64,000 bases of DNA from an uncultured Acidobacteriota bacterium (GTDB lineage: Bacteria > Acidobacteriota > Thermoanaerobaculia > UBA5066): NCBI GenBank assembly GCA_963836285.1, contig CAWIIN010000001.1:482080-546079 (forward strand), in the 5' to 3' direction. The position numbers and the translations under genes are program-made. A model generated the notes under the pieces. It did no database searches and was not told the DNA's origin. It saw only the letters and a list, made by a program, of their open reading frames with translations. Shown in pieces: positions 3,363-53,711 of the stretch. Within the stretch, counting starts at the first letter, position 1, and every line of letters starts with the position of its first letter.

Positions 3363-4102
3363 GGCGGGCCGATCCTCTTGAAGACGAATCGGGGGACGTG
3401 GTGGAGCGCGAGGCCGAGGAGGCCCCAGCGGCGGGGGACGTAGAAGACCTCGTGCCGTTTCTCGAGACGGTCCGCGATCGTCCGCGCCGCGACGTCGGGC
3501 GCGACGACCCAGAGGAGGTCCTTCCTCCCGTCGAGCATCCGCGTGTCGAGGAAGCCCGGCTTCACCGTGGAGACCGTGACGCCGAGCGGGAAGAGGCGGT
3601 TCCTCAGGCCCTCGAGGAACGTCGTGAGCGCCGCCTTGGAGGCGTTGTACGCGGGGTTGCCTTTCCGGCCGCGGTCGCCCGCGATCGAGGAGATCGCGGC
3701 GAGGTGGCCGCGGCGCGCGGCGCCGAAGTAGTTCGCGGCGAGACCGAGCATGCGGACGGCCGCGACCGCGTTCACCTGCATCGTCTCCACGTCCCGCCCG
3801 GGGTCGCTCGAGACGCCGTCGCCCGCGTACATGACGCCCGCGTTGTAGAGGAAGAGGTCGCAGTGCCCCGCCGCCTCGAGGGCCTCGCGGAACGCCGGCT
3901 CGATCCGCGACGCGTCCGTCAGGTCGCAGACGACGCCGCGAACGGTCGCGGCGGGGTGGCGCGCGGCCAGCTCCGCGACGAGGGCGTCCAGCTTCCGGGG
4001 CGCGCGGCCGAGAATCGTGACCCAGCAGCCGCGCGAGGCGTATTCCGCCGCGAGCGCGCGGCCCAGGCCGTCGGTGGCCCCGACGAGGACGACTCTCTTC
4101 AC
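3359..4102 (-). CDS. short-chain dehydrogenase/reductase, DprE2-like
   Basis: 247 aa. It carries the Rossmann motif VLVGATDGLGRA, NAG, and the catalytic YNASKAA. Its stop overlaps the DprE1-like start (GTGA). Confidence 0.8.
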   Translation of the reverse strand: MKRVVLVGATDGLGRALAAEYASRGCWVTILGRAPRKLDALVAELAARHPAATVRGVVCDLTDASRIEPAFREALEAAGHCDLFLYNAGVMYAGDGVSSDPGRDVETMQVNAVAAVRMLGLAANYFGAARRGHLAAISSIAGDRGRKGNPAYNASKAALTTFLEGLRNRLFPLGVTVSTVKPGFLDTRMLDGRKDLLWVVAPDVAARTIADRLEKRHEVFYVPRRWGLLGLALHHVPRFVFKRIGPP

Positions 4103-4138
4103 GCGTTCTCCCGTCTCATCTTCGCAGAGGGCGCCGTC

Positions 4139-5146
4139 TCACGGCCAGAGGCGCTCCTTCTCCTCGTGCCAGTCGCGCGTGACGTCGAGCCAGAACGCGA
4201 GGCCCGCGTGGGGGCCGAACGGAGCGTAGAGCCGTACGATCCGCCCGTCGGGAACCCTGCGCCCCCGGAAACGCAGGGCCGCGACCTTCTTGCGCGACCA
4301 CGCGTCCAGGCCCAGCTTGCCGTGCCGGCCGAGGAGGCGTCCGAGCGTGTCGGCCGCGTAGGGGCCGAAGCCCTTCTCGGAGCGGATCTCCTCCTCGACG
4401 TCCTCGGCCGCGCGGGAGGCGTCCTCCCAGCGCGAGAGGTCGAGCGCGCCCGAGGCGACGCGCTCCGCGAACGCGGCGAGGTAAGGCGCCCGGTAGCCGA
4501 ACTTGAGCCGCTCGAGGTCGCGGGCCGAGAGACCGGCCACGAACGCCGCGTCGGGGAAGGCGCCACCCCGGTCGAATCGGCCGACGAGGTTCTTCACCAT
4601 GACCTTCGTGAGGCCCCACGTGCAGTTCGTCGTCGCGAGGACCTTCACGGCGTCCTCGAAGAGCGTCGGCGCGCGCAGGATCCTCCCCGCCCCGCGCCGC
4701 GCGATCCACGCGAAGCGCGGATCGCCGGCGCAAAGGGAATGGAAGGAAGCGAGTTCTGCTCGGAGGTCCAGGACGCGGTCGAGCACGCGACGAACGGCGA
4801 CGCGGGATGGAAGGTCCGAAGAGACCGGAAGAGATTCTTCGAATGGTAATTGCCCTCGCCCCCCCGCCGCCGAAACCGCGCTTGAGGCGCCGCCCCGCCG
4901 GGCCGCGCCGCCCCTCCCCTCTTCGCCCTTCGAAGAAATCCCTTGCGCCGAAGGCGCGACCGGTGATGCGGATGCGATCAGTCCGCTCGAACCGCGATGC
5001 ACGCGCAACTGCACGGGGCATTCACCGTCCAAGAAAACAAATCCGAGCCTGTGCTCCTCCGCATCCCAATGGAACGGAGGCAGGTCGTACCACCCGTGGC
5101 TGCGCACGACGAGGTCGAGGTCGAGGGGCTCGAGCGCGACCCTCAG
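4139..5146 (-). CDS. AlkA-like (HhH-GPD superfamily-like) DNA glycosylase family protein carrying an in-frame repeat-element insertion
   Basis: This is the C-terminal 335 codons of track ORF 4139..5971. Motifs are PLDLDLVVRSHGWYDLPPF.., ..GAGRILRAPTLFEDAVKVLATTNCTWGLT.. and ..FPDAAFVAGL. The start is uncertain: a CTG at 5146 gives a CTGA overlap with the PBP1A stop, or a downstream GTG could be used. Confidence 0.6.
   Translation of the reverse strand: MRVALEPLDLDLVVRSHGWYDLPPFHWDAEEHRLGFVFLDGECPVQLRVHRGSSGLIASASPVAPSAQGISSKGEEGRGGAARRGGASSAVSAAGGRGQLPFEESLPVSSDLPSRVAVRRVLDRVLDLRAELASFHSLCAGDPRFAWIARRGAGRILRAPTLFEDAVKVLATTNCTWGLTKVMVKNLVGRFDRGGAFPDAAFVAGLSARDLERLKFGYRAPYLAAFAERVASGALDLSRWEDASRAAEDVEEEIRSEKGFGPYAADTLGRLLGRHGKLGLDAWSRKKVAALRFRGRRVPDGRIVRLYAPFGPHAGLAFWLDVTRDWHEEKERLWP
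4808..4941. repeat. inverted-repeat element, copy 2 (in frame inside the glycosylase CDS)
   Basis: A purine-rich tract precedes the left arm GAGATTCTTCGAATGGTAA (4831..4854). The right arm is CCCCTCCCCTCTTCGCCCTTCGAAGAAATCC (4911..4941). Confidence 0.8.
5021..5050. repeat. additional solo arm in the glycosylase CDS
   Basis: TTCACCGTCCAAGAAAACAAATCCGAG compares with the right-arm consensus TTCACCTTCTAAGAAATC followed by CGAATCC. The core matches at 13 of 15 positions. Confidence 0.5.
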
Positions 5147-7590
5147 AACGGAGTCGCTCCCCCGATGCCGGGTCCGGGCGCGAGCTCGCCGCTCCCGTGC
5201 GGACAGCGCTGCTTCGGCTCGGTCCCCTGGAGAAAGACCTCGTCGAGAGACGCCGGGCACTCCTCGGTCACGAGGAGGCCGGTCGTCGGGTCGATCGAAG
5301 CCGTCACGACGCCGGGCGTCCTCGGGAACGGCGTCTCGAACGAGTGCGACGGGAGCCGGCGCACGAAGTCGGCCCAGATCGGCAGCGCGGCCGTCGAGCC
5401 CGACAGGTTGAGGCCCCGGTTGTCGTCGAACCCGACCCACACGGCGACGAGGAGGCGCGGAGAGAAGCCGATGAACCAGGCGTCGCGGCCGTCGTTCGTC
5501 GTGCCCGTCTTGCCCGCGAGAATCCCCTGCGCGCCGAGCCTCCTCGCCGACGCGCCCGTTCCGTGGTCCACGACGCCCCGCAGGACCGAGTCCAGCACGG
5601 ACACGGCGTCGGCGTCCGCCGCCCGCACGATCGGCGTGTCTTCCGACTCCATGCGGCGGGCCGACGGCGTTACGAGGCCGACGAGCGCGTTCGGCCGCAC
5701 GCGGAACCCGCCGTTCGCGAACGTGCAGTACGCGGCCGCGATCTCCATCGGGCTCGTCTCGAACGCGCCGAGCGCGAGCGACGGGTACGGCTTCAGCGGC
5801 GACGAGATCCCGGCGCGCCGCGCCGTCTCGACGATGTCCGGAAGGAGCGTCCGGCCGGGCGCCGTCCCGGTCACTGCGATGCGCACCGTCGGGATGTTGA
5901 TGGACTGCTCGAGCGCCTGCCGGGCCGTCATCGTGCCGCGGTACTCCCCGTCGTAGTTCTTCGGCGACCACGTCTCGTCCTCGCCCTTGCCCCAGACGAG
6001 CGCGATCGGCGAGTCGAGGTAGAGCGACGCGGGCGTGATCGGGGGCACGAGGTCGCGCTTGGCGAACGCGGTCAGGTAGACGAACGGCTTGAAGAGCGAG
6101 CCCGGCTGGCGGCGCGCCTGCACGACGCGGTTGAACTGCGAGACCTGGTAGTCGCGACCGCCGACGAGCGCCCGCACGGAGCCCGTGGAAGGGTCCAGCG
6201 CGATCAGCGCCGCCTGGAGCTGGTTGTCCTCTTCGCGGGAGCGCAGCCGGCGGAACTTCTTCTCGAGCTCCTCGAGCCCCTTCTGGACCGCGGCCTGCGC
6301 GGAGAGCTGCATGTCGGGGTCGAGCGTCGTGTAAATCGACGAGCCGTCCTCCTTCGAGAAGCCCGGGATCTCCTTCGCCTGGTTCAGCACGAAGTCCACG
6401 AAGTGGGGCGCGACGACGCCCGTCGGAGGAGCCGCGATCCGCGTGAGCGGGGCCGCGTTCGCGACGTCGAAGGCCGCGCGGTCGATCTTCTTCTGCTCGA
6501 GCATCCCCCTCAGGACGACCGCGCGCCGCTGCCGCGCGTTCTCGGGGTTCCGGAACGGCGAGTACTTGCCCGGCGACGAGATGAGACCCGCGAGCAGGGC
6601 GGCCTCGGGCAGCTCGAGACGCGAGGCGCTCTTGCCGAAGTAGAAGCGCGAGGCCTCCTCGACTCCCGTCACGGAGACCGAGCCGCGCTGGCCGAGGTAG
6701 ATTTCATTGAGGTACGCCTCGAGGATCTGGCTCTTCGAGTACTTCGCCTCGAGGATGACGGCCATCAGGGCCTCGACGGCCTTGCGCTTGAGCGTGCGCT
6801 CGGGCGTGAGGAACATGTTCTTGACGAGCTGCTGCGTCAGGGTCGACGTCCCGTGGACGCCCGCGCGCCGCGTGACGCTCTGGAGCACGGCGCCGACGAG
6901 GCGCCGCGGGGAGATCCCCGCGTGCGTGAAGAAGTCGCGGTCTTCCGTCGTGAGGATCGCGTCGAGGAGGATCTTCGGCACCTGGCCGAGCGTCACGAGG
7001 GTGCGGTCCTGCATCTTCTCGTCGAAGACCGTACCGACGATTTCCGGCTCGAAGACGACGTCCGGGAGTGGCGCGCCGTCCTCGACGCGGCGGACGGACG
7101 CGACGCGCCGGCCGGAGAACTCCAGGACCGCGGCCACGCCCGGCGTGCGCCCCCAGGCGGTCTCCCGGTCGTTCACGGAGACGGTGACGCGCCCCGGCGA
7201 AAGCGCGAACTGGCCGGGCTCGAGCGGCGGCTTCGGGACCTCCGCATACCGCAGCCGCGCGAGCCGGCGCGTCACGTCGTCGGGAGCGAGGGCGTCGCCC
7301 GGCCGCACGACCCAGACGTCCGAGTAGAGCCGCGTCGGGAGGCTCCAGCGCCGCCCGTCCATCGTCTTCGAGACGACGCGCGAGAAGTAGAGGACGACGA
7401 CGACGCCCGCGACGGCGAGCAGCGCCGCCGTCGCTCCGAGTGCGAAGATCACCGGCCGCGGGACGCGGGCGAGGAGACGGGCGGACGCGACGCTGACGGC
7501 CTTCAGGCGCGCGGACACCGCGGCCGCGACAGCCGCGAGGCGGGAGGCGAGCGCCTGGAATCTCCCGGGACCCGGCTCGGAATCGCTCAC
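5143..7590 (-). CDS. mrcA: penicillin-binding protein 1A (bifunctional glycosyltransferase/transpeptidase)
   Basis: 815 aa. It has the GT51 motifs EDRDFFTHAGI, GTSTLTQQLVKN and RKAVEALMAVILE. The transpeptidase motifs are SLFKP, SIN and KTGTT. Confidence 0.9.
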   Translation of the reverse strand: MSDSEPGPGRFQALASRLAAVAAAVSARLKAVSVASARLLARVPRPVIFALGATAALLAVAGVVVVLYFSRVVSKTMDGRRWSLPTRLYSDVWVVRPGDALAPDDVTRRLARLRYAEVPKPPLEPGQFALSPGRVTVSVNDRETAWGRTPGVAAVLEFSGRRVASVRRVEDGAPLPDVVFEPEIVGTVFDEKMQDRTLVTLGQVPKILLDAILTTEDRDFFTHAGISPRRLVGAVLQSVTRRAGVHGTSTLTQQLVKNMFLTPERTLKRKAVEALMAVILEAKYSKSQILEAYLNEIYLGQRGSVSVTGVEEASRFYFGKSASRLELPEAALLAGLISSPGKYSPFRNPENARQRRAVVLRGMLEQKKIDRAAFDVANAAPLTRIAAPPTGVVAPHFVDFVLNQAKEIPGFSKEDGSSIYTTLDPDMQLSAQAAVQKGLEELEKKFRRLRSREEDNQLQAALIALDPSTGSVRALVGGRDYQVSQFNRVVQARRQPGSLFKPFVYLTAFAKRDLVPPITPASLYLDSPIALVWGKGEDETWSPKNYDGEYRGTMTARQALEQSINIPTVRIAVTGTAPGRTLLPDIVETARRAGISSPLKPYPSLALGAFETSPMEIAAAYCTFANGGFRVRPNALVGLVTPSARRMESEDTPIVRAADADAVSVLDSVLRGVVDHGTGASARRLGAQGILAGKTGTTNDGRDAWFIGFSPRLLVAVWVGFDDNRGLNLSGSTAALPIWADFVRRLPSHSFETPFPRTPGVVTASIDPTTGLLVTEECPASLDEVFLQGTEPKQRCPHGSGELAPGPGIGGATPF

Positions 7591-9936: not shown

Positions 9937-10806
9937 ATGGCTTCCCCGCACCGCGACGCCTCGGTCCGGGTGCACGTCGTTCGCCGCGACGGAGACGCGT
10001 CGCGGCGCGACCGGGACTCCCTGACGGCCGAGGAGCCGCTCGAGATCCGCCTGCGCGAGGAAGGCGGCCCGGCGACCCGCTTCGTCGTCACGATGCGCAC
10101 GCCCGGCGACGACGACGACCTCGCGGTCGGCCTCCTCTACGCGGAGGGCGTCATCCGGGGAGGCGCCGACGTTCTCGCGGTCGGACCGCCCGACGATCCG
10201 GGCCTCGCCCCGGACCTCGCCCGAAACGTCCGCGTCGTCACGCTCGCTCCGGGCCGGGCCGCGTGCGCTCCGCGGCGGGCGACCGTCATGGGATCCGCCT
10301 GCGGCGTCTGCGGCCGGACGTCAGTTTCCGACGTGATCGCTCTCGCGGCCGCGGCTCGCGCGCGCGCGGAGGCGTCGGTCGCGGGAGACACCGCGACCGA
10401 TCTCGCGATCCCCGCGGCCGTGCTGACGCGCCTGCCGGATCTCCTGCGCGAACGCCAGGCCGTGTTCGCCTCGACGGGCGGGCTCCACGCGGCCGGATTC
10501 TTCGAGCTCGACGGGACGCTCGAGGTCGCGCGCGAGGACGTCGGCCGGCACAACGCGACCGACAAGGCCGTCGGGGCGCTCCTGAGGGCGGGGCGGGCGA
10601 CGCCGCCGGTCCTCGTCGTCTCCGGACGGCTCGGCTTCGAGATCGCGCAGAAGGCGGCCCTCGCGGGCGCGAGGATCGTCGCGGCGGTCTCCGCGCCCAC
10701 GAGCCTCGCCGTGGACCTCGCCGAGGAGGCCGGGATCACGCTCGTCGGGTTCCTCAGGGGCCCGCGTTTCAACGTCTACGCGCACCCGGAGCGCATCCGG
10801 GGCTAG
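9937..10806 (+). CDS. fdhD: formate dehydrogenase accessory sulfurtransferase FdhD
   Basis: 289 aa with the motifs SACGVCG, EDVGRHNATDKAVG and SGRLGFEIAQKAALAG. Confidence 0.85.
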   Translation: MASPHRDASVRVHVVRRDGDASRRDRDSLTAEEPLEIRLREEGGPATRFVVTMRTPGDDDDLAVGLLYAEGVIRGGADVLAVGPPDDPGLAPDLARNVRVVTLAPGRAACAPRRATVMGSACGVCGRTSVSDVIALAAAARARAEASVAGDTATDLAIPAAVLTRLPDLLRERQAVFASTGGLHAAGFFELDGTLEVAREDVGRHNATDKAVGALLRAGRATPPVLVVSGRLGFEIAQKAALAGARIVAAVSAPTSLAVDLAEEAGITLVGFLRGPRFNVYAHPERIRG

Positions 10807-11309: not shown

Positions 11310-13364
11310 CTACCTGAGGAGATTGTCCTCGACGAACTTCACGCCGGCGTAGAACTGGAAGTCCTGGTTCTTCTTCTTCGAGAAGCCGTGTCCCTCGTCG
11401 TTGGCCATGAGGAACCACACGGGTCCGCCGTTCTTCTTGATCGCGGAGACCATCTGCTCGGCCTCCGTGTACGGCACGCGCGGGTCGTTCTTCCCCGCGA
11501 CGATGAACATCGGCTTCGTGATGTTCCCCGCGCTCGTGAGAGGCGAGACCCTCTCGAGGAACGCACGCATCTTCGGGTCGCGCTCGTCGCCGTACTCGAC
11601 GCGCCTGAGGTCGCGACGGTAGGCCTCCGTGTGCTCGAGAAACGTCACCCAGTTCGAGATCCCGACGACGTCGACCGCGCACCGGAACCGGTCGTTGTAG
11701 TGCGTCATCGAGGCGAGCGTCATGTAGCCGCCGTAGGAGCCGCCCGTCACCATCACGCGGCTCTTGTCGAGCCCGGGCTGCGCGGCGATCCAGTCGAGGA
11801 GGGCGCCGACGTCCTTGACCGTGTCCTCGCGCTTCTCACCGTTGTCGAGCGCCAGATACGTCTTGCCGAACCCGCTCGAGCCGCGCACGTTCGGGAAGAT
11901 CATCGCGACGCCGAGCTCGTTCATGAAGAAGTTGTTGCGTCCGAGGAAGCCCGGCTGGAACTGTCCCTCCGGTCCGCCGTGGATGTTCACGATCACGGGC
12001 CGCGGCCCCGCGAACGAAGCGGGCGGGCGATACAGGAACCCCGTGATCGTCTTCCCGTCGAAGCTCTTCCACGAGATCGCTTCCGGCTCGGAGAACGTCG
12101 CCGCGTCGAGGCCGCCCGTCTCGCTCTCGGTCCAGCGCGCGAGCCGGCCCGTCGTGACGTCCACAGAGTAGACGTCCGACGGCGAGCGCGCCGACGAGAG
12201 CGAGAACGCGAGCTCCTTCGAGTCCGAGCGGAACCGCAGGGAGCCGATCGTGCCGAGCGCGAGCTTCGGGAGCGGCAGCTCGCGGCGCGTCTTCAGGTCG
12301 AGGACATGGAGCGTCTCGGCCCCCGCGTCGTTGAGGACGTACGCGATCTTCGAGCCGTCGTCGGACAGGTCGAAGCCGTTCACGTCCCACTTCACGTCCG
12401 GCGTGAGCACGTCCCACTTCCGCGTCTCGACGTCGACGGCGACGAGCCGGTGGAACTCGTCGTCCTTGTCGCTCGTCAGGTAGACCGTCCTGCCGTCCGG
12501 GGAGAACCGGGCGCGCCCGTAGGAGACCATTTCCTTCGTCTCCGGCGTGAACAGGGTCTTCGCCCCGCTCGCGACGTCGACGAGGTAATAGCGGCTCTCG
12601 TTCGCCGAGATCGCTTCCGCGACGAGCAGGGACCGGCCGTCCGGCGCCCAGTCCGTGGCAAACCAGCCGCCGCCTTTCCCCTGCAGGACGAGCCGCTCCG
12701 TCTTCGAGTCCGACGGGTCGACCACGTAGACGTCGTTGTCCCGGCCGGTCCGTTTCGTGGATTCGTACGCCAGCCACTTGCCGTCGCGCGTGAACGGGCC
12801 TTCCGTGTTCCGCGACTTGCCGTCCGTGAACATCGACACCTTGCCCGTGCGCCCGTCGCGCAGGAAGAGCTGGAACCACTCGCCGCCGCCGACGTCCTTT
12901 CCGAACACGATGTCGTCGCTCTTCGGGCGGTACCGGGCGTTGCCGACGCGTTCCGGGTAGAACGTGAGCTGCGTCCGGGCCCCGCCCGGCATCGCGACGC
13001 GGTGAATCTGCGGGACGTCCGCGAAGCGCGTCGTGATCAGGATCTCGCGCCGCGTCGGGTGCCAGTCCGAGAAGCCCGCGGCCCGGGAATCCCCGTACGA
13101 AGCGGCCTGCGCGGCGATCGCCTTCGGGATCGGCGGGATGCCGTCCAGGACGAGCTGCTCGTTCGGGACGACGACGTCATCGGCGCACCGCGCCGGGAGA
13201 GGGAAGAAGAGAATGCTGCTCAGAAAGAAGAGAAAGGAAAGAGGAAGAGAAAGGGGGAAATGAAGGAAAGGACGAAAACGAAGAGAAGATTTTCTTAGAA
13301 GGTGAAGAGGGGCCGCAGCCCGCCCGCCCCCGGTGCCGTGAGTCGTGCGCATCGCAACCTCCAC
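11310..13364 (-). CDS. S9 family serine peptidase (prolyl oligopeptidase/dipeptidyl aminopeptidase with beta-propeller)
   Basis: 684 aa with TolB-like propeller repeats (FSPDG, WAPDG). The catalytic motifs are GGSYGGYM, ..D.RV.. and the His region NDEGHGF. The first ~60 codons are encoded by the repeat element, so the start is uncertain. Confidence 0.85.
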   Translation of the reverse strand: MEVAMRTTHGTGGGRAAAPLHLLRKSSLRFRPFLHFPLSLPLSFLFFLSSILFFPLPARCADDVVVPNEQLVLDGIPPIPKAIAAQAASYGDSRAAGFSDWHPTRREILITTRFADVPQIHRVAMPGGARTQLTFYPERVGNARYRPKSDDIVFGKDVGGGEWFQLFLRDGRTGKVSMFTDGKSRNTEGPFTRDGKWLAYESTKRTGRDNDVYVVDPSDSKTERLVLQGKGGGWFATDWAPDGRSLLVAEAISANESRYYLVDVASGAKTLFTPETKEMVSYGRARFSPDGRTVYLTSDKDDEFHRLVAVDVETRKWDVLTPDVKWDVNGFDLSDDGSKIAYVLNDAGAETLHVLDLKTRRELPLPKLALGTIGSLRFRSDSKELAFSLSSARSPSDVYSVDVTTGRLARWTESETGGLDAATFSEPEAISWKSFDGKTITGFLYRPPASFAGPRPVIVNIHGGPEGQFQPGFLGRNNFFMNELGVAMIFPNVRGSSGFGKTYLALDNGEKREDTVKDVGALLDWIAAQPGLDKSRVMVTGGSYGGYMTLASMTHYNDRFRCAVDVVGISNWVTFLEHTEAYRRDLRRVEYGDERDPKMRAFLERVSPLTSAGNITKPMFIVAGKNDPRVPYTEAEQMVSAIKKNGGPVWFLMANDEGHGFSKKKNQDFQFYAGVKFVEDNLLR

Positions 13365-13436
13365 CTTCTAAGAAGTCCGAATCCGGATCTTCATCCGAGT
13401 CCGAATCTTCATCCGTATCCGAATCTTCTTCTTAAG
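13201..13436. repeat. inverted-repeat element, copy 3 (fills the spacer between the Gre-domain gene and the S9 peptidase and extends into the peptidase ORF)
   Basis: An ~85-nt polypurine tract precedes the left arm GATTTTCTTAGAAGGTGAAGAGGGG (13288..13312). The right arm is CCTCCACCTTCTAAGAAGTC (13358..13377). Three tandem 18-nt units, TCCGAnTCCGnATCTTCA, follow (13376..13429). Confidence 0.85.
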
Positions 13437-16082: not shown

Positions 16083-16169
16083 GGCAGTCCTCCTCGAACC
16101 GAACGACGATTCTAGCTTTGCTTCGGACCCGATCCGCTCCGGAAGCGCCTCGGACTCGGAGATGCCGCT

Positions 16170-16265
16170 AATTTCCTAGAAAGTGAAAGAATCGATTCGT
16201 ACCGCAGGAGCCAGGAGACAGCCGATGCGCAAGCCCAGCGCTCATTCACCTTCTAAGAAATCTTC
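16170..16265. repeat. inverted-repeat element, copy 4 (intergenic)
   Basis: The left arm is AATTTCCTAGAAAGTGAAAGAATCG. The right arm is CTCATTCACCTTCTAAGAAATCTTC. Confidence 0.8.
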
Positions 16266-16281
16266 AACGGCGACCGGCCGG

Positions 16282-20635: not shown

Positions 20636-21944
20636 GCGTGACGATTCTGCGCCCGCCGGCCGGACGGGACTGCCGCGCGCCGTCGTCCGACTCGGGTGGG
20701 TGTCGTTCCTGACGGACGTCTCGTCCGAGATGATCGTCCCTCTCCTCCCGGCGTTCCTGACGACGCTCTCGGGCGTCCCCGCGACGGCGCTCGGCTGGAT
20801 CGAGGGCGTCGCGGACGCGACCGCGTCGTTCGTGAAGATCCTGTCGGGCAGGTGGACGGACCGCGCGAAGGCGAAAAAGCCGCTCGTCTTCCTCGGCTAC
20901 GGCCTGTCGTCCTGCGCGCGGCCACTGATCGGCCTCGCGCCGGGCTGGCCGGCGATCGTCGTGATCCGCTTCTTCGACCGCGTCGGGAAGGGCATCCGCA
21001 CCGCCCCGCGCGACACGATGATCGCGGCGGCGGCGCCGCCCGAGCGCCGCGGCGCAGCGTTCGGACTGCACCGCGCGTTCGACAACGCGGGCGCGGTCTT
21101 CGGCCCGCTCCTCGCGGCGGGGCTCGTGGGATGGATGGGGCTGGGCCTCAGGACGGTCTTCCTGCTCGCGGCCATTCCGGCGGCTCTCTCACTCCTCGTC
21201 CTGGCGTTCGGGGTGAAGGAAGATGGGAAAAGAGAAGAGAAGATTTCTTTGAAGGTCAAGGGCGCTGGGGTGGGCGGTGCGCCGCTCGACTCGCGCCGCG
21301 GTTCCCCGCCGCCCTCTTTACCACTCGAAGGAAAATCCACCGTCCCCCCGGCCGGGGCATCACCGGATGCGCTCGGGTCCGAAGCCAAACTCCCCCCGGT
21401 CTTCTGGCGCACTTCAAGCGTGTTCGCGCTCTTCGCGCTTGCCGCGTCGTCGGACACGTTTCTTCTTCTCAAAGCGAAAGAGATCGGGATCGCCGCCGCC
21501 TGGCTGCCCATCCTCTGGGCGTTCTCGAACGCCGTGAAATCCCTCTTCTCGACGTGGGGCGGGGGGCTGTCGGACCGTTTCGGCAGGCGGCGGCTGCTCT
21601 TCGCCGCATGGACGCTTTACGCGGTCTGCTACGCCGGCTTCGCATTCGTCACGTCCGCGGCGCCCCTCGTCGCGCTCGTCGGCGTCTACTCCCTCTACTA
21701 CGCGCTCTCGGAGGGAACGGAGCGTGCGCTCGTCGCCGACCTCGTCGCCCCCGAGATGCGCGGCCGGGCGTTCGGCTGGATGAACGGCTTCGTCGGCTTC
21801 GCGGCGCTACCCGCGAGCGTCGTCTTCGGCCTCGTCTGGCAGGCTGCGGGCTCGAAGATGGCGTTTCTGGCGGGATCGGCCGTCGCGGCGGTCGCCGTCC
21901 TGGGCCTCGTGACGCTCGTTCCGAAGCGGCGCAAGGCCGGGTAA
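20634..21944 (+). CDS. MFS transporter with a repeat-element insertion in the central loop
   Basis: The sequence shows 12-TM-like hydrophobicity, FLTDVSSEMIVPLLPAFL, and the GRWTDR motif between TM2 and TM3. The start is uncertain: the ATG at 20634 overlaps the recO start codon. Confidence 0.7.
   Translation: MRDDSAPAGRTGLPRAVVRLGWVSFLTDVSSEMIVPLLPAFLTTLSGVPATALGWIEGVADATASFVKILSGRWTDRAKAKKPLVFLGYGLSSCARPLIGLAPGWPAIVVIRFFDRVGKGIRTAPRDTMIAAAAPPERRGAAFGLHRAFDNAGAVFGPLLAAGLVGWMGLGLRTVFLLAAIPAALSLLVLAFGVKEDGKREEKISLKVKGAGVGGAPLDSRRGSPPPSLPLEGKSTVPPAGASPDALGSEAKLPPVFWRTSSVFALFALAASSDTFLLLKAKEIGIAAAWLPILWAFSNAVKSLFSTWGGGLSDRFGRRRLLFAAWTLYAVCYAGFAFVTSAAPLVALVGVYSLYYALSEGTERALVADLVAPEMRGRAFGWMNGFVGFAALPASVVFGLVWQAAGSKMAFLAGSAVAAVAVLGLVTLVPKRRKAG
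21214..21338. repeat. inverted-repeat element, copy 5 (in frame in the central loop of the MFS transporter)
   Basis: A purine tract precedes the left arm AGATTTCTTTGAAGGTCAAGGGCG (21241..21264). The right arm is GCCCTCTTTACCACTCGAAGGAAAATCC (21311..21338). Confidence 0.8.
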
Positions 21945-24868: not shown

Positions 24869-27800
24869 CACGTAGCTGCCGTCGGACGTCGCGTTGTCGT
24901 TCAGGACGCCGTACGCGGCGAAACGGGAGCTTCCGGAGATCCTCTCGATCTTCGCGTAGCCGGCGCAGAGCCCCGAGCGCCGCGAACGGCCGGCCGAACT
25001 GGAACCATTGCCCGGGGCCGAGAGGCTGGTCGGCGGGGACGCTGGCGAGAGGGCTGCCGTTCGAGTCCGAAGAGGGTCACACGCAGACCGATCGAGTCGC
25101 CCGCGTCTCCCCGGTTCACGAGCGCGAGATTCGAGCGCTGTGCCGCGTTCTCCTGGAGACCGTAGACGAACGCCGTGCCGGTCGCGCACTCGGCCGGCGT
25201 GAGGCCCGGGTAGAAGAGTCCGTACGAGCCCGCGGGCGCGAGCGGCACGTACGTGCGCGCCCCGACCGCGAGCGCGCTCGCGGGCGTGCCCGGCGCCGCC
25301 TTCACGAGGAGGGATCCGCCGACGTCGCGCCCGTCGTTCTCGATCGGAAGCGTCGTGCGAAGGAACGCGATCGCGTCCGGAACGATCCGCTGCTCCCCCG
25401 CCGCGAGGGTCAGGGCGATCTCGCCCGTGCCGCTCCCGAAGGCGGCCGTGTACGCGAGCGCGAGCGGAAGCGGAGACGCCGTGAGGTTCGTCAGCGTGAG
25501 CTCGGTCCGGAAGCGCGCGCCGAGGCCCGCGACGTCGAGGACGATCGGCACGAGCCGGTCCGCGCCCGAACCGTCGTCGCCGAGCAGGGGCGGGACGTAC
25601 GAGCCGTCCGACGTGACGCCGTCGTTCAGGACCGCGTACGCCGTGAACGGGGAGGCGCCGGAGACGCGGGTCACGACCGCCCTCCCGGACGCGGCCTTCC
25701 CCGCGAGCGGCTGGTCGTACTGGAACCAGCCCCACGGGCCGAGGGCGAGATCGGGCAGCGTCCCGAGATCCTCGCCGTTCGGGCCCTGGAGCGCGACGCG
25801 CACGACGATCGACGACCCGCCGGCGTTCACGACCGCCACGTTCGAGCGCTGCGAGGCGCCCTGCTGGAGGCCGAAGAGCGTTGCGGACGCTCCCGTCGAC
25901 CGGGCCGCCGGGTATGCGAGGCCGAACGTCCCGGCGCCTCCCGCGGGATCGGGCGTGAAGGTGCGCGCCCCCGCGAAGACGAGACCCGGCGATCCGACGC
26001 CGCGGAACGTCGCGAGGAGCGTTCCGACCTGGCTCGAGCCGTCTGCGGGAATCGGCAGGCCCTGGCCGCGCAGCCAGTCGACGATGCCGGGCAGGACGCG
26101 CATTTCTCCCGCCGCGAGCGTGAGGCGCGCGAACCCCGAGCCGGAGCCGACCGAGGCGGTGTAGGAGAGGATCACGTCCGTCGGCGCACCCGCGCGCGCG
26201 ACGAGGGTGAGCTCGGACCGGTAGTGGCTGCCGCCGACGCCCGAGGCCTCGAGGACGACCGGGACGAGGAGCCCGACGTCCCCGGCGGCCGGGGCGGGTG
26301 CGGTGACGTTGACGGTGAGCGTGGCCGCTCCCGTCCCTCCGCTCGCATCGCGCGCCGTGAGCGTGACGTGGAAGGCCCCGGGCACGGCGTACGCGTGCGC
26401 CGCCGGCGCCGGCCCCGTCGCTCCTCTCCCGTCGCCGAAGTCCCAGGCGAGCGTCACGGCGTCGCCGTCCGGATCCGTCGCCGAGCCGACGAACGCCACG
26501 GGAGCGCCGGCTTCGACCGTGAACCCCGGCGCCGGAGACTGGATCACGGGGACGGGCGGCCGATTCGAGATCGACGCCGCGGACGGCGCCGAAAAGAAGA
26601 GGTCGAGGGCGGAGCCCGTGTCGTCCGCCCACGAGACGACGATCGTTCCGCCCGCGCCCGCGGAGACCGAGACGCGGCCGGGTCCGCCGATGCCGTCGAC
26701 GGGATCGCCCGCGCTCCCGGAGAGCCCGCCGTTCGCGGAGAGGTTTACCGGGGGCGTGAACGTCGCACCGCCGTCCGTCGAACGCGCGACGCGGGCGTCG
26801 CTCTGGACGTCGTTCGCGTCGAACTCCTCCCAGGCGACGTCGATCGCACCCGAGGGCTCGAAGACGACGGACGGCACGTAGGACTGGTCCGCCGCCGCCG
26901 AGAGGAGGACGGGGCTCGAGAACGAGGTGCCGCCGTTCGTCGAGCGCCTGAACGTGATCTGCCGGTTCTGGAGCGCGTTCGCGACGATCGAGCGCGTGTA
27001 GAACGCGAGCGCGACGCTGTCGTCGGGCCCGACCGCGAGGTCCGGCGCGAGCGCGTAAACCGCCGCGTCCGACACGGTCGCGGCCGCCCCGAACGCGGCG
27101 CCCGCCTTCGAGACGGAGAGCCGGACCGCGGAGGACGTCGAGGACTGCTTCGTCCACGCGAGGAACGCGTCGTTCTTCGAGTCGAGGGCAATGCCCGGCC
27201 GCGCGAAGACCGACGGGGCATCGAAGATCGGAACCTGTGTCGAGAAGGCCGTCCCCCCGTTCGTCGAGCGGGACCACTCCACGACCGGCGCCGTGTCCGA
27301 GAGGTCGTACCAGACGACGACGAGGTTTCCGTTCCCGTCGGCGGCGATGTTCGGCAGCTCCGCGATCCGTCCTCCGGCGCTCACCGCGGCGGGCGCCGAG
27401 AACGTGGCGCCGCCGTCCGCCGAGCGCGCGAAATAGACGCGCGGCGCGGTGTCGGCGATCGTCCGCCCCTGCCAGACGACGAAGATGCGCCCGGTCGGGT
27501 CGATCGTGAACGTGCTCTCGTACGCGAAAGACCCGTTCGGGTTCAGCGCGAGCGGCGGGGAGAACGTCGTCCCGCCGTCCGTCGAGCGCCTGTAGGCGAC
27601 GTTCGAGCCGGTCACCGCGGAGGTGTCGTCGTCCGCGACCGCGTGCAAGACGCCCGCGGCGTCCGACTTGACCGTGCCCGTGGAGAAGCCGGCCGACCCC
27701 GTGACGTTCACGGGAGCCGGGAGCGCGCCGGAAGGCCTCACCGTGAGGCGCATGCGTGTCCCGCGGACGAGGCCGCCGGCGGACGCCGCGACGCCGAGGA

Positions 27801-29592
27801 CGTAATCGCCCGGCGGCGTCGAGGCCGGCACCGCGACCGTGAGGCGCACGGCCTGGCCGGGCATCGCCGAACCGCTCGCGAGAGTCAGGCCGAGGCCGGC
27901 CGGAGCGAGGTCCGGGGCGAGCGCGAGCGTTCCCGCGAAGCCGCTCTCGCCCGAAGCGGCGAAGTCGAACGTCGCGGTTCCGCCCTGCGGAGCGGCCGCG
28001 TATGTCGTGACCGCCGAGAGGCCGAAGTCGGGCGCGAGCGCGTCGAACGCCTCCGGGACCGCCGCCGCCCAGACGTCCGCATCGCCCGAGCGTTCGTCCG
28101 TCCAGGCGGCGTAGAAATTGCCGCCGTCCGCCGCGAGGCCGTCGTACGACGTGTGGCCGAATCCCCCGAGGCTGTGCGGCGCCGGCGCCCACGGGGAATT
28201 GCGGTCCGTGAGCCGGAAGTTCTTCCCCCACGTCGCGCCGCCGTCACGCGAGATCGCCATGTACTGGTCCGTCAGGGTGTCCCGGGCCGCGTCGTTCCGG
28301 CGGTCGGCCCAGCGCACGCCCACCGTCCCGTCCGCCAGCGCGGCGACCGACGGAAACGCCTGCGTCGTGGACGTCCCGTCGTCGTTGAGCTTGCGGGCCG
28401 CGGAGAACGTCGCTCCGTTGTCCGTCGAGCGCGCATAGAAGACGTCCGAGCGGTCCGTCGTGCCGGTCGAGACGGCGGCCCAGACGACGTGGACGACGCC
28501 GCTTCCGTCCACGGCGAGCGAGGGACCGGAATTCGACGCGGCGGCGCCGCCGCCCGCCGTCACGGGGCCCGCGGGCCGGAACGTCGCAACCGTATGCAGG
28601 GAGCCGAAGAGCTGTCCGCCGTCGGTCGAACGCGTGATCGAGATTCCGCCGGGCGAATAGTGTCCGTCCTGGTACGCGACGTACACGTCCCCGTTCGGCG
28701 CGACCGCTACCGCCGCATGGTCGACCGGGGCGCCATCGATCAAGTTGAGCGACGCGGGCGGCAGGAAGGTGGCCCCGCCGTCGGAGGAGCGCGCGAAGAA
28801 GATCGCCGTGACGCCGTAGTACGTGAAGTAGTCGGTCCACGCGACGTAGACCTGCCCCCTCCGCGGCGACGACGCGCCGTTGTCGACGGCGACCGCGGGC
28901 CTGTCCATCACGTCGTAGCCGTTCTCGACGTAGCTCGAGGGGCTCGAGGACCCCGAGAACGTCTCTCCGCCGTCCGTGGACTTCGCGAGCTCGACGCCGG
29001 TCGGGTCGCCGTTCGCCGCCGCGAGGGATGCATAGTAGATCTCGCCGGCCGAGCCGATCGCGACCGACGGGCTCCCCCAGTTGTAGATGCCGTCGGGCTC
29101 CGGGATCCGCATGTGGGCGAACGTCGCACCACCGTCGTTCGAGACGCCGTAGCCGGCCGCCGAGTACGTCGAGTCCTCGAAGCCGACGAAGACGCGCGAG
29201 CCCCGCGCGGCGACGGACGTCGTGCGGCTCGCGTGATGGTCGACGTCGAGCGTCGGGTCGTTCACACGGACGTTCTGGCGCGGAGCCGGAGCGGCGAGCG
29301 CCGCCGCCGCCGCGGCGCGCGCCTCCGGGACGCGCGGTCTCGCCGGGACGCGCGCCGGAGCCGGCGCGAGAGAGTTCGCGACGAGAACTGCCTGCCGGGC
29401 TCCCGGCGACAGCGCGGACAGGATCCCGGGCTCGAGCGCCCAGGAGAGCCGCGACGGCGTGGCGGGCGCGGTCCCGTCGGGAGCCGGACGCGGCCCGGCC
29501 GCCGAACCCGGATGAGAGACGAAGAGAAAGAGGGGAAGGAGGAGAAGATTTCTTAGAAGGTAAGAAAGATTGCGGGGGCGGCGCTGCGACAA
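24854..29592 (-). CDS. giant secreted BNR/sialidase-like repeat + PKD-domain protein with a tandem C-terminal domain; the 3' end is broken by two +1 frame shifts
   Basis: Track ORF 24901..29592 shows repeated S-x-D-x-G-x-T-F/W motifs (STDGGATF, SRDGGATW). A PKD domain is present (VAFVGSATDPDGDAVTLAWDFGDG). The true C-terminus continues in two other frames and ends ..YGVLNDNATSDGSYVPMTF at 24854. Confidence 0.8.
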
Positions 29593-29674
29593 ATGGCTCC
29601 TCCTCGAGGCGACCGAACGAAGGACCCCAGCAATTCTCGTGCAGACCTCCCGTGTCCACTTTCTAAGAAGAATC
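29511..29674. repeat. inverted-repeat element, copy 8 (5' end and upstream region of the BNR gene)
   Basis: A polypurine tract precedes the left arm AGATTTCTTAGAAGGTAAGAAAG (29546..29568). The right arm is TCCACTTTCTAAGAAGAATC (29655..29674). Confidence 0.85.
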
Positions 29675-38260: not shown

Positions 38261-38414
38261 GCGGGGAAAGACCGGAAGAAGGGATTTCTTCGAATGAGTG
38301 GGGAGCGGTCGGACGCCGAGTGACCGCACGTTCGGGCCCGCCGCACCGGCCCCACTCAACCTTCTAAGAAATTCCGAATCCGAATTCCCTCTTCCAATCC
38401 GAAATCCGAATCAC
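38261..38414. repeat. inverted-repeat element, copy 9 (fills the infB-DUF503 spacer)
   Basis: The left arm is GGATTTCTTCGAATGAGTGGGG (38282..38303). The right arm is CCCCACTCAACCTTCTAAGAAATTC (38350..38375). A CCGAATC-rich tract runs from there to 38414. Confidence 0.85.
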
Positions 38415-38756
38415 ATGATCGTCGCCATCGCCGTCTTCGACTTCCACCTGCCGTCCTCGAGGGGGCTCAAGGAGAAGCGGGCGTTCCTGCGCCCGCTCAA
38501 GGCGCGGCTCCGCGGCGACTTCGAAATCTCGGCCGCCGAGGTCGCGCACCAGGACCTCCTCCAGCGTGCCGCTCTCGGCGTCGCCGCGGTTGGGCCGGAT
38601 CGGGAGGCGCTGGAGCCGTTGCTGCAGAAGATCCTGTCGTACGTCGAGGGATACGCCGAAGAGAACGGCGCCGAGATCGCGGCGGAACGCCACGAATTCC
38701 TCAATTACGGCGACGTCGGCGCCGCGGGAAGCGCGTTCGGAGCCAACGGAGACTGA
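38415..38756 (+). CDS. DUF503 (YlxP-like) protein
   Basis: MIVAIAVFDFHLPSSRGLKEKRAFLRPLKARLR.., the typical DUF503 N-terminus. It occupies the usual position between infB and rbfA. Confidence 0.75.
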   Translation: MIVAIAVFDFHLPSSRGLKEKRAFLRPLKARLRGDFEISAAEVAHQDLLQRAALGVAAVGPDREALEPLLQKILSYVEGYAEENGAEIAAERHEFLNYGDVGAAGSAFGANGD

Positions 38757-50769: not shown

Positions 50770-50964
50770 CGAGAGAAGAGCGAGAGACGAAAGAGATGAG
50801 GAAAGAAGAGGGGAAGAGAGATTTTCTTCTGAAGGGAATGGGGCGGGAGTCGCGCCGCGGCTCGCGACGCGCGGCGGTGCCGCCCTCTTCCCCTTCTAAG
50901 AGAATCCCCGGTCTCCCCTCTTCACCTTCTCAGAGATTCTTCTCTTCTCCTTTCTTCGTCTCCG
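50770..50964. repeat. inverted-repeat element, copy 12 (fills the actB-actC spacer; two right arms)
   Basis: A ~50-nt polypurine tract precedes the left arm GAGATTTTCTTCTGAAGGGAATGGGG (50818..50843). The right arms are CCCTCTTCCCCTTCTAAGAGAATCCCC (50883..50909) and CCCCTCTTCACCTTCTCAGAGATTC plus a polypyrimidine tract (50916..50964). Confidence 0.9.
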
Positions 50965-52962: not shown

Positions 52963-53711
52963 TGCGCCGCGCGCTCCTCCCCCTCGTCGCGCTCGCTCTC
53001 GCCGGCTGCCGCAACGACATGCACGACCAGGCGAAGACGAAGCCTCTTCGCGAGTCGCCGTTCTTCGCGGACCACGCGTCGGCCCGGCCCCTGCCCGAGG
53101 GCGTCGTCGCGCGGGGCTTCCTTCGCGCCGACGCGGTCCTCTACCGCGGCCTCGGCCCGGACGGGAAGTTCGTCCTCGACCTCCCGGTTCCCGTCACGAG
53201 GCCACTTCTCCTCCGCGGGCGCGAGCGCTTCGACGTCTACTGCTCGCCCTGCCACGGGCGCGCGGGCGACGGCCAGGGAATGATCGTCCAGCGCGGCTTC
53301 AAGAACCCGAGCACGTTCCACGTCGACCGACTCAGGAACGAGCGCGCCGGCTACTTCTTCGACGTCATGACGAACGGCTTCGGCCAGATGTCGAGCTACG
53401 CCTCGCAGGTCGCGCCGGAGGACCGCTGGGCGATCGTCGCCTGGATCCGCACGCTGCAGGCCTCACAGGACATGCCGAGAGAATTTCTTGCTAAAGACGA
53501 CGAAGGGAAGCTCGAGGCGAAAACGGCAAGCGGCGAGGCAGGGGCCATGGCGCAGAAGAGTTCCTTAGAAGGTGACAGCGGGGTAACGGCCGCGCACCCG
53601 GCCCCCGGCGCGGCTCCGGCGGCGCCCGGGCCCTCTTCACCTTCTAAGAAATCTTTCTCTTCATCTTCGTCTTCCCCTTCCTCGTCCTCTCCTCCGAGCA
53701 AGACGCAATGA
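52962..53711 (+). CDS. actE: alternative complex III subunit ActE (monoheme cytochrome c lipoprotein) with an ~80-codon repeat-element-encoded tail
   Basis: It has the lipobox LALAGC and a single CSPCH heme motif. The conserved body ends near ..WAIVAWIRTLQASQ (~53470). The ORF then stays open through the repeat element to a stop that overlaps the actF ATG. Confidence 0.8.
   Translation: MRRALLPLVALALAGCRNDMHDQAKTKPLRESPFFADHASARPLPEGVVARGFLRADAVLYRGLGPDGKFVLDLPVPVTRPLLLRGRERFDVYCSPCHGRAGDGQGMIVQRGFKNPSTFHVDRLRNERAGYFFDVMTNGFGQMSSYASQVAPEDRWAIVAWIRTLQASQDMPREFLAKDDEGKLEAKTASGEAGAMAQKSSLEGDSGVTAAHPAPGAAPAAPGPSSPSKKSFSSSSSSPSSSSPPSKTQ
53478..53695. repeat. inverted-repeat element, copy 13 (between the actE body and actF; two left arms)
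   Basis: A left-arm-like sequence, GAGAATTTCTTGCTAAAGACGACGAAGGG, lies at 53478..53506. The left arm GAAGAGTTCCTTAGAAGGTGACAGCGGGG is at 53555..53583. The right arm GGGCCCTCTTCACCTTCTAAGAAATC plus a polypyrimidine tract is at 53628..53695. Confidence 0.9.

Follow-up and report, generated by a model that had tools for sequence, protein, structure and literature searches.

The window analyzed here is a stretch of 64,000 nucleotides (nt) from an uncultured Acidobacteriota bacterium (Thermoanaerobaculia; UBA5066; GCA_963836285.1, contig CAWIIN010000001.1, positions 482,080-546,079). On its minus strand it carries a gene for a DNA glycosylase of the AlkA/OGG fold with a helix-hairpin-helix (HhH) domain, and within this gene lies a block that is an in-frame copy of a palindromic repeat (Table 1). 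A profile search of PDB with the protein and its homologues, which are 291-337 aa long, recovered the solved 3-methyladenine and 8-oxoguanine glycosylase structures 4ejy (E 3.8e-7) and 3i0w, and the profile matches start just past the block. Foldseek, run on the AlphaFold model, recovered AlkA of A. fulgidus (2jhj, E 2.5e-9) as well as OGG1 structures, the matches extending over the full length of the model. Since a Pfam scan of the protein gave nothing at E<0.01, it would belong to a divergent subfamily. The characteristic features of HhH-GPD glycosylases of the AlkA/OGG type could be identified (N-terminal beta domain, HhH domain, Gly-rich hairpin and putative catalytic Asp); the HhH hairpin GFGPYAAD and the Asp of the downstream LGLD are invariant in the family alignment, all of whose invariant columns are kept in the window protein. 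A Tyr replaces the Lys of bifunctional OGG enzymes, which we presume to be the expected state of a monofunctional enzyme. Two codons are candidates for the start: CTG at 5146-5148, which aligns with the start codon of homologues and overlaps the TGA of the upstream penicillin-binding-protein (PBP) gene (CTGA overlap, 5143-5148), and GTG at 5107-5109, which gene callers have chosen in many close homologues. The window has GTC at a position where homologues have their start codon.

The first-pass annotation, made from the letters of this stretch, had proposed that the open reading frame (ORF) of the glycosylase runs in frame through a complete palindromic element with arms at 4831..4854 and 4911..4941. 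To compare orthologues, 60 orthologous loci with 10-kb flanks were collected, all from metagenome-assembled genomes (MAGs) of Thermoanaerobaculia, Acidobacteriota or Holophagales, and insert length was gauged as the distance between the invariant anchors SHGWY and RGAGRI. This distance was 423 nt in the window, in contrast with 273-282 nt in all distant orthologues, and ranged from 300 to 468 nt in the carriers of the clade. Two clade members, L019 (276 nt) and L023 (273 nt), had the anchor distance of the outgroups, and L019 appeared in the DNA alignment as a clean empty site, with ..GGCGCG joined directly to CGTTCGCC... The in-frame element was thus confirmed, and both arms lie at the proposed positions. 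The additional segment was found where it had been placed, between the conserved N-terminal block and the RVLDL block, and it was missing from the arm-less genes L019 and L023 and from all distant homologues, which is the pattern that had been set beforehand as the check for a lineage-specific insert. The further expectation, that the insert would coincide with the arm boundaries, was correct at one end: the 49 added codons start at an arm but run 33 nt past the other one (4798-4830).

The inserted block is bounded by a Gln codon (4945-4947) and a Val codon (4795-4797). Its two AT-rich arms are inverted copies of each other. A hidden Markov model (HMM) of the family arm, described below, placed the ISSKGE-side arm at 4918-4946 within an arm stretch of 4911-4946 (E=0.017 in the window); the LPFEE-side arm was too degenerate for the model in the window and matched the orthologous arms column for column in the DNA alignment. 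In a search of 880 kb of orthologous loci, the same model identified arms of this loop at E values from 4.7e-4 to 5.7e-3, on the ISSKGE side in L001 and L003 and on the LPFEE side in L012. In the window copy, the arm cores are TTCTTCGAA and TTCGAAGAA in place of the family's TTCTTAGAA and TTCTAAGAA, respectively, and the in-frame TAG and TAA of the family are thereby lost; TTCGAA or TTCAAA is found at the core in all in-gene copies, and the TTCGAA cores keep the two arms of the window mutually complementary. The tail resembles the purine- or pyrimidine-rich extensions of intergenic copies, for example at 38262-38300. A tryptic peptide encoded by the insert would be GQLPFEESLPVSSDLPSR.

The copy is present, with the same junctions, in approximately 20 relatives within Thermoanaerobaculia, either in full or in a one-arm or fused-arm version. 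Full copies were found in the window, L001, L003 and L011, and shorter full copies in L009, L012, L014 and L025. Only the 5' arm, with or without the tail, is left in L002, L007 and L043; the 3' arm and the tail are left in L006, L015, L016, L018 and L022; and in L017 the arms are fused and the core is gone (SSKGEFENL). The right junction and the tail are common to all carriers of the main clade, and the left junction has three variants, set apart only by small in-frame deletions. Carriers also have in common an alignable box in the core (..CGGCGGCGGGC..). In two neighbor-joining trees, both built without support values (one of the PBP protein and the other of the DNA of the glycosylase C-domain), the carriers formed one clade of two subclades, with full copies in both and L019 nested among carriers. 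Because the carriers share junctions and core variant, form a clade in both trees and include full copies in both subclades, the comparison points to a single old insertion that was later trimmed by deletions. An ancestral linker of variable length was also considered and rejected, given that the outgroups all fall within 273-282 nt and that the two nested clade members do likewise.

Some additional observations concern the same loop. A second, unrelated palindrome (CTATCCGGCGGCTGC-GAAT-GCAGCCGCCGATAG) is present in frame in L026 and L035 (~10100-10350) and, in L008 and L024, lies nested within the first element; in L026, L008 and L024, GTCAAGGGCGCGC...GCGCGCCCTTGAC comes after it. L008 and L024 are two contigs of one MAG (MFD01872.bin.1.215) with identical glycosylase regions, reflecting either duplication or redundancy of assembly or binning. 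Arm-like sequences in swapped order occur in L030, which belongs to another clade. A small GC hairpin, GCGCCTTCGGCGC, precedes the insertion site.

The minus-strand ORF is open across 4826-4945. It should be noted that four frames are open for >300 codons at the insert, so an open frame alone is weak evidence of read-through in this 72%-GC DNA. In all 18 intact orthologues, the two anchors lie in one frame, and the more than 10 distinct distances between them (273-468 nt) are without exception multiples of three; the chance that ten independent, unconstrained length changes would all be multiples of three is ~(1/3)^10. We infer that the insert is read through as part of the glycosylase. The AlphaFold model, whose quality is modest (mean predicted local distance difference test score, pLDDT, of 66.7), has strands in residues 2-63, no secondary structure and pLDDT <50 in residues 67-110, and helices from residue 116 onward. 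Because the structureless residues separate the beta domain from the HhH helices, the insert is predicted to be an interdomain linker of low model confidence, which agrees with the surface loop anticipated by the first-pass annotation. In the model, the insert thus occupies a place tolerated by the fold, as behavior like that of Rickettsia palindromic elements (RPEs) requires.

The arms belong to a family of repeats with many members in the window. The pattern CTTCACCTTCTAAGAAAT, with up to three mismatches allowed, matched the window 11 times where 0.00 matches were expected, and the arm HMM built from the window arms matched by it identified inverted pairs at six intergenic sites as well as solo arms at 21237, 45269 and 46291. 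Family members consist of inverted AT-rich arms of ~25 nt (25-40 nt), a GC-rich core of 35-115 nt and a pyrimidine-rich tail. The arm consensus is approximately GATTTCTTAGAAGGTGAAGAGGGG, each arm contains the near-palindrome TTCTnAGAA, and the family consensus has stop codons in three of its six frames. The occurrence of the family is restricted to the clade, with 1.40 arms per 10 kb versus 0 in 450 kb of intermediate or outgroup loci. An Rfam gathering search of the whole window gave no match, so the element corresponds to none of the curated RNA families. Literature searches on repeats of Thermoanaerobaculia and Acidobacteria brought up no description of this palindromic family. The arm may also resemble the 3' end of 16S rRNA together with the sequence downstream of it (..CACCTCCTTTCTAAGGA..).

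Table 1 Features of the palindromic repeat family and of its host genes in the window
Feature	Position	Strand	Remarks
AlkA/OGG-fold HhH DNA glycosylase gene	4139..5148	minus	ORF and codon map; stop codon 4139-4141
Inserted block GISSKGEEGRGGAARRGGASSAVSAAGGRGQLPFEESLPVSSDLPSRVA	4798..4944	minus	147 nt, 49 codons; missing from empty-site orthologues
Arm, 5' end of insert in coding direction	4918..4944	minus	ATT TCT TCG AAG GGC GAA GAG GGG = ISSKGEEG
GC-rich core (spacer)	4855..4917	minus	63 nt; encodes Gly/Ala/Arg/Ser-rich stretch
Arm, 3' side in coding direction	4831..4854	minus	TTA CCA TTC GAA GAA TCT CTT = LPFEESL
Pyrimidine-rich tail	4798..4830	minus	33 nt; CCG GTC TCT TCG GAC CTT CCA TCC CGC GTC GCC = PVSSDLPSRVA
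Arm 0, arm-like motif over conserved strand LGFVFLDGE	5020..5043	minus	arm HMM E=2 in window; no added length
MFS transporter central-loop copy, in frame	21220..21340 (about)	plus	both arms, 21242-21262 and 21312-21338; ..KREEKISLKVKGAG..PSLPLEGKS..
GT-C-like membrane protein arm fragments, in frame in loops	46291-46322, 46425-46446, 46640-46672	minus	gene 45328-47088, 587 residues
Intergenic copy, paired arms	13278..13391		conserved at orthologous gB/gA site in relatives
Intergenic copy between divergent genes	16158..16273		conserved at orthologous site in 5 relatives
Intergenic copy, paired arms	29539..29669		arm pattern and arm HMM
Intergenic copy	38279..38382		left arm with same TTCTTCGAA variant as in-gene copy
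Intergenic copy	50817..50945		one left arm and two tandem right arms
Intergenic copy	53555..53665		exact 18-nt arm-core pattern; long hairpin, RNA fold z = -4.39

The start codons at 38415, 50979 and 53709 are each preceded by an intergenic copy at a distance of 33-44 nt, and no obvious Shine-Dalgarno sequence could be seen before them. Across 125 arms, however, the distance from arm to start codon was broadly distributed without a sharp peak, and arms were therefore no longer considered a fixed component of gene starts. The copies at 13278-13391 and 16158-16273 are present at orthologous intergenic sites in L001, L003, L005, L009 and L024, genomes with 70-90% identity in the flanking proteins; conservation at these sites covers the arms together with part of the core, and a further conserved box, TCTTTCTAAGCAGCATTCT, adjoins one of the gene starts. 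It was also observed that intergenic copies have a long purine-rich tract on one side and a pyrimidine-rich tract on the other (GAAGAGAAAGG.. and ..TCCGAATCTTCATCC; 13200-13280, 13376-13435, 38375-38412 and 53655-53700).

Besides the glycosylase, other protein genes of the window contain the repeat. The copy in the central loop of an MFS transporter matches that of the glycosylase in orientation and frame (KISLKV...SLPLEGK), and the source gene call for the transporter (P0121, 414 aa) reads through it; full, half and absent states could be distinguished in the same loop when MFS homologues were aligned. In a GT-C-like membrane protein, arm fragments encode the peptides SLYSLSKKSPGGG, EGVSSSGD and GEDFLGKDKRGG, and two of the arm-bearing loops are longer only in close relatives. 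This protein probably carries in-frame insertions of the family as well, on weaker evidence than the glycosylase and the MFS transporter. We also scanned metagenomes for an exact 17-mer of the arm, which was found in at least 120 contigs; 58 of the contigs listed had at least 64% GC. An arm was counted as lying within a gene if an ORF was open through it and the GC content at third codon positions (GC3) was at least 0.82 on both sides (a relaxed classifier). On this definition, 16 of 73 evaluable arms (~22%) in the high-GC metagenome contigs among the matches listed were inside ORFs, where the encoded peptides include SPSKKS, FLEGE, LHLLRK and ISLKV; the three stop-free frames are used by arms inside ORFs (SPSKK, FLEGE and LHLLRK). 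At the level of sequence, in-frame insertions of the family are present in more than one protein gene without mutual relationship, namely those of the glycosylase, the MFS transporter and probably the membrane protein.

On the basis of these data, 4798-4944 is one copy of a lineage-specific palindromic repeat, which is likely to have inserted once, to be read through and to have been decaying since. The copy would have entered the glycosylase gene a single time, in the ancestor of a clade of Thermoanaerobaculia, presumably by transposition of a unit resembling a MITE (miniature inverted-repeat transposable element) or a repetitive extragenic palindrome (REP). It would have landed between the codons for ..APSA(R/Q) and VRRVL.., where the N-terminal beta domain is hinged to the first helix of the HhH domain. 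Read by the ribosome, it would yield a linker of 49 residues that is rich in Gly, Ala, Arg and Ser, has ISSKGE and LPFEESL as its borders and, according to prediction, is disordered. The change from the family's TTCT(A/T)AGAA to TTCGAA in both arm cores would have removed TAG and TAA while keeping the arms complementary. The insert would be a tolerated passenger rather than a required part of the enzyme, and its peptide is presumably neutral. Since then, one arm, the core or the entire block would have been deleted in different lineages, each time by a multiple of three bases, as the catalytic domain encoded downstream has to remain in frame.

Several findings weigh against this reading. First, the whole-length similarity expected among copies of a MITE was not seen: when the spacers of eight window copies were compared, the local alignment score was 11.3 versus 10.2 for shuffles, the spacers being alike in base composition only, and nothing but a GC-rich box beside one arm recurred. 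Second, a target-site duplication would look like the GCGCGG(G) that borders the insert of L001 and L003 and stands once at the empty site, but this sequence was not seen in other carriers and is indistinguishable from chance in GC-rich DNA. Third, the RNA fold of the in-gene copy (z = -0.28) was no more stable than that of shuffled sequences; the hairpin of this copy has decayed, unlike that of the intergenic copy. Fourth, the source gene call (P0055, 100% identity) comprises only the C-terminal 215 aa and starts at GTG 4786, 12 nt past the insert, and no ATG, GTG or TTG adjoins the conserved glycosylase N-terminus in the window. Fifth, four orthologues (L005, L025, L028 and L030) contain frameshifts. 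All four are MAGs with MFD-prefixed isolate names, which we take to be long-read assemblies, and assembly error is a plausible cause of the frameshifts. Finally, the arms are better conserved than a passenger should be. Orthologue identity was 0.75-0.83 in the arms, compared with 0.575 (pairwise) in the core and 0.66-0.69 in the adjacent coding flanks; the highest mean, 0.83, was that of the LPFEE-side arm (14 orthologues, 33% GC), the tail reached 0.77 (17 orthologues), and identity at third codon positions was 0.72 in the 50-codon block with the highest conservation. The loop arms have also retained CCA, TCT and AAT, codons whose background usage is 1%, 4% and 12%, respectively. Because arms are more conserved than spacer and flanks and rare AT-ending codons persist in them, a purely neutral passenger fails to account for the constraint on the arms.

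A similar constraint was observed upstream of the insert, at the motif referred to here as arm 0. The first-pass annotation had listed a further arm of the element at 5021..5050, which turned out not to be inserted. The arm HMM gave E=2, no length has been added, and the underlying conserved strand (FLEGE) is present in all homologues, including outgroups without the family, which encode FVFLHGG or FVFLDGD with GC-rich codons. Orthologues of the clade spell the arm consensus nearly perfectly at this position (for example, GTTTTCTTAGAAGGTGAAT in L005 and GATTTTCTTAGAAGGTGAAGAC in L043). For the Leu, 10 of 20 genes use TTA and 8 use TTG, triplets that account for 0.2% and 1.9% of the Leu codons in their C-terminal domains, and for the Glu, 16 of 17 genes use GAA against a background of 16%. 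Throughout L001-L043, the match to the consensus is made with the very rare codons TTA, GGT and GAA. Weak arm-like versions of the motif already occur in a sister clade without the repeat family (L026, L028, L030 and L035). Inside genes, the nucleotide sequence of the arm is thus either preserved or restored again and again.

This conservation, for which the reading given above does not account, keeps alive the alternative that the arms are a short DNA signal, such as an uptake sequence or the site of an abundant protein, which is kept or spread at the nucleotide level wherever it is tolerated. Arm 0 is the clearest case in its favor, as 20 genes of the clade encode F-L-E-G-E by the arm consensus with rare codons and without change of length. 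The persistence of rare codons in the loop arms, the higher conservation of arms than of spacer or coding flanks, the unrelated spacers of different copies, the intergenic copies held at orthologous sites between proteins of 70-90% identity and the use of three stop-free frames within ORFs point in the same direction, and the uptake sequences of Haemophilus and Neisseria provide a precedent (PMC2817400). However, the glycosylase and the MFS transporter have each gained a whole block of 120-147 nt with the architecture of an intergenic copy, which is missing from outgroups, and drive by point mutation makes no such block. Arms of 25-40 nt are also far longer than known uptake signals. We thus regard this alternative, as an account of the insert, as rather unlikely. 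The more general proposal that the arm serves Thermoanaerobaculia as a functional DNA or RNA signal and is maintained, through selection or molecular drive, even in conserved coding sequence can be put forward tentatively, with somewhat better prospects.

A second alternative is that the same loop was hit several times independently, as a hot spot or as the only permissive place, in which case the copies in different genomes would be non-orthologous. The arm-like sequences in swapped order in a different clade (L030), the second palindrome in the same loop, the GC hairpin before the site and the two insert-free genes nested among carriers would all fit such a history. Nevertheless, all main-clade carriers have one right junction, their three left forms are separated by nothing more than small in-frame deletions, and they have in common the TTCGAA core variant, the tail and the box in the core, in addition to forming one clade in two independent trees. 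Repeated insertion therefore appears improbable. Very improbable is a broken gene whose N-terminal part is dead or separate and from which only the HhH domain is made, starting at GTG 4786 with an arm and pyrimidine tract upstream: the source gene call, the lack of a start codon at the N-terminus and the spacing of the arm, which ends ~40 nt before 4786 much as intergenic copies precede the starts at 38415, 50979 and 53709, are in its favor, but the frame is kept through the insert at many lengths in the intact orthologues, SHGWYDLPPF of the strongly conserved N-terminal domain is invariant, GTG 4786 is not conserved (it is GCG, Ala, in L001), arm-to-start distances have no sharp peak, and a scan of 4000-5400 for sigma-70 promoters and intrinsic terminators found none and so lends no support to an internal promoter or terminator in the insert.

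The single in-frame insertion that we favor has its closest counterpart in RPEs, as the first-pass annotation had suggested, and in behavior the likeness is borne out. According to the passages of PMC10969869 that deal with RPE-1 and its relatives (Ogata et al., 2000, 2002), these are palindromic repeats of ~100-150 bp that occur between genes as well as in frame in unrelated housekeeping genes, where they add peptide segments compatible with the fold, are found at orthologous positions across species and decay progressively, and all of this seems to apply to the family described here. The two differ in several respects. The host is a free-living member of Acidobacteriota with ~70% GC, and no sequence resemblance to RPEs was noticed, a formal comparison not having been made. 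The conserved unit is the AT-rich arm here and the whole element in RPEs, and the arm is maintained as a nucleotide sequence also where it is coding. The family consensus has stops in half of its frames, so that copies in genes are core variants or use stop-free frames. Given the host and the base composition, homology by descent to RPE-1 to RPE-10 is very unlikely.

Protein-coding palindromic repeats as such are already known, and what is new is the family of Thermoanaerobaculia. The genomes of Opitutus terrae and Thioalkalivibrio contain ~65% GC. Intragenic REPs of the GTAG/CGTC superfamilies have been reported in known protein genes, including uvrA and uvrB, with the highest count of one intragenic type in O. 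terrae, and uvrA carries them in both O. terrae and Thioalkalivibrio (Di Nocera et al., 2013; PMC3733652); the statement of the first-pass annotation that no such case was known from a high-GC lineage can thus not be upheld. Intragenic REPs are, like the present repeats, short palindromes in protein genes, including genes of DNA repair; they often form inverted dimers, which encode 20-30 residues. In our family, inverted doublets are present, and ~22% of the arms evaluated in the metagenome contigs are intragenic. The arm consensus contains no GTAG/CGTC tag, the arms are AT-rich whereas REPs are GC-rich stem-loops, and the arms are set apart by the GC-rich core. Bacterial MITEs (ERIC, BOX, QMITE1 of Coxiella and the MITEs of Anabaena; PMC10969869, PMC5896051) are likewise small, non-autonomous repeats with inverted ends that sometimes extend proteins, and fusions of MITEs in frame have been called 'not unusual' (PMC10969869). 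Terminal inverted repeats are represented here by the inverted arms of 25-40 nt, outside of which lie the purine- or pyrimidine-rich extensions that leave the true termini uncertain. Unlike those MITEs, the copies are old, are fixed at orthologous sites and have spacers without full-length similarity. Finally, the uptake signal sequences and DNA uptake sequences (USS/DUS) of Pasteurellaceae and Neisseriaceae (PMC2817400, PMC2346458) resemble the arms in that a short motif is dense and over-represented in both orientations, forms inverted intergenic pairs, takes particular reading frames in genes at poorly conserved positions and is maintained at the DNA level, in our case at the nucleotide level in coding DNA. 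In contrast with USS/DUS, the arms are two to three times longer and arrive with core and tail as an inserted block, and a role in uptake is hypothetical.

Two other repeat-bearing regions of the window were noted. Diverged direct repeats of 40-86 nt, spaced mostly by ~160 nt or multiples thereof, lie within an ORF of ~1600 codons at 26755-29016 (minus strand) and look like a repeated protein domain. Short tandem repeats with a period of 18 nt (..CCCGTCCGGGCTTCG..) are present at 35988-36095.

In-frame colonization by palindromic repeats is best known from the reduced, AT-rich genomes of Rickettsia, and our data indicate that it is substantial also in a free-living, uncultured acidobacterial class with ~70% GC. 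Across ~20 genomes, one insertion can be followed from the full copy through half copies and fused arms to clean loss, which helps to study how proteins absorb and shed foreign segments. In the source annotation, the insert has cut the gene call to 215 residues, and gene finders are likely to assign wrong starts to element-bearing genes in such MAGs or to split them. The retention of AT-rich arms with nearly forbidden codons (TTA, CCA and TCT) suggests a role at the DNA or RNA level and offers a lead to a possible signal system. If the arms are indeed a signal, codon choice and, locally, the peptide itself (FLEGE, SPSKK, ISSKGE and LPFEE) would have been reshaped in many genes, and the in-frame insertions would be the most conspicuous part of a signal system that extends across the genome and has not been described in this phylum.

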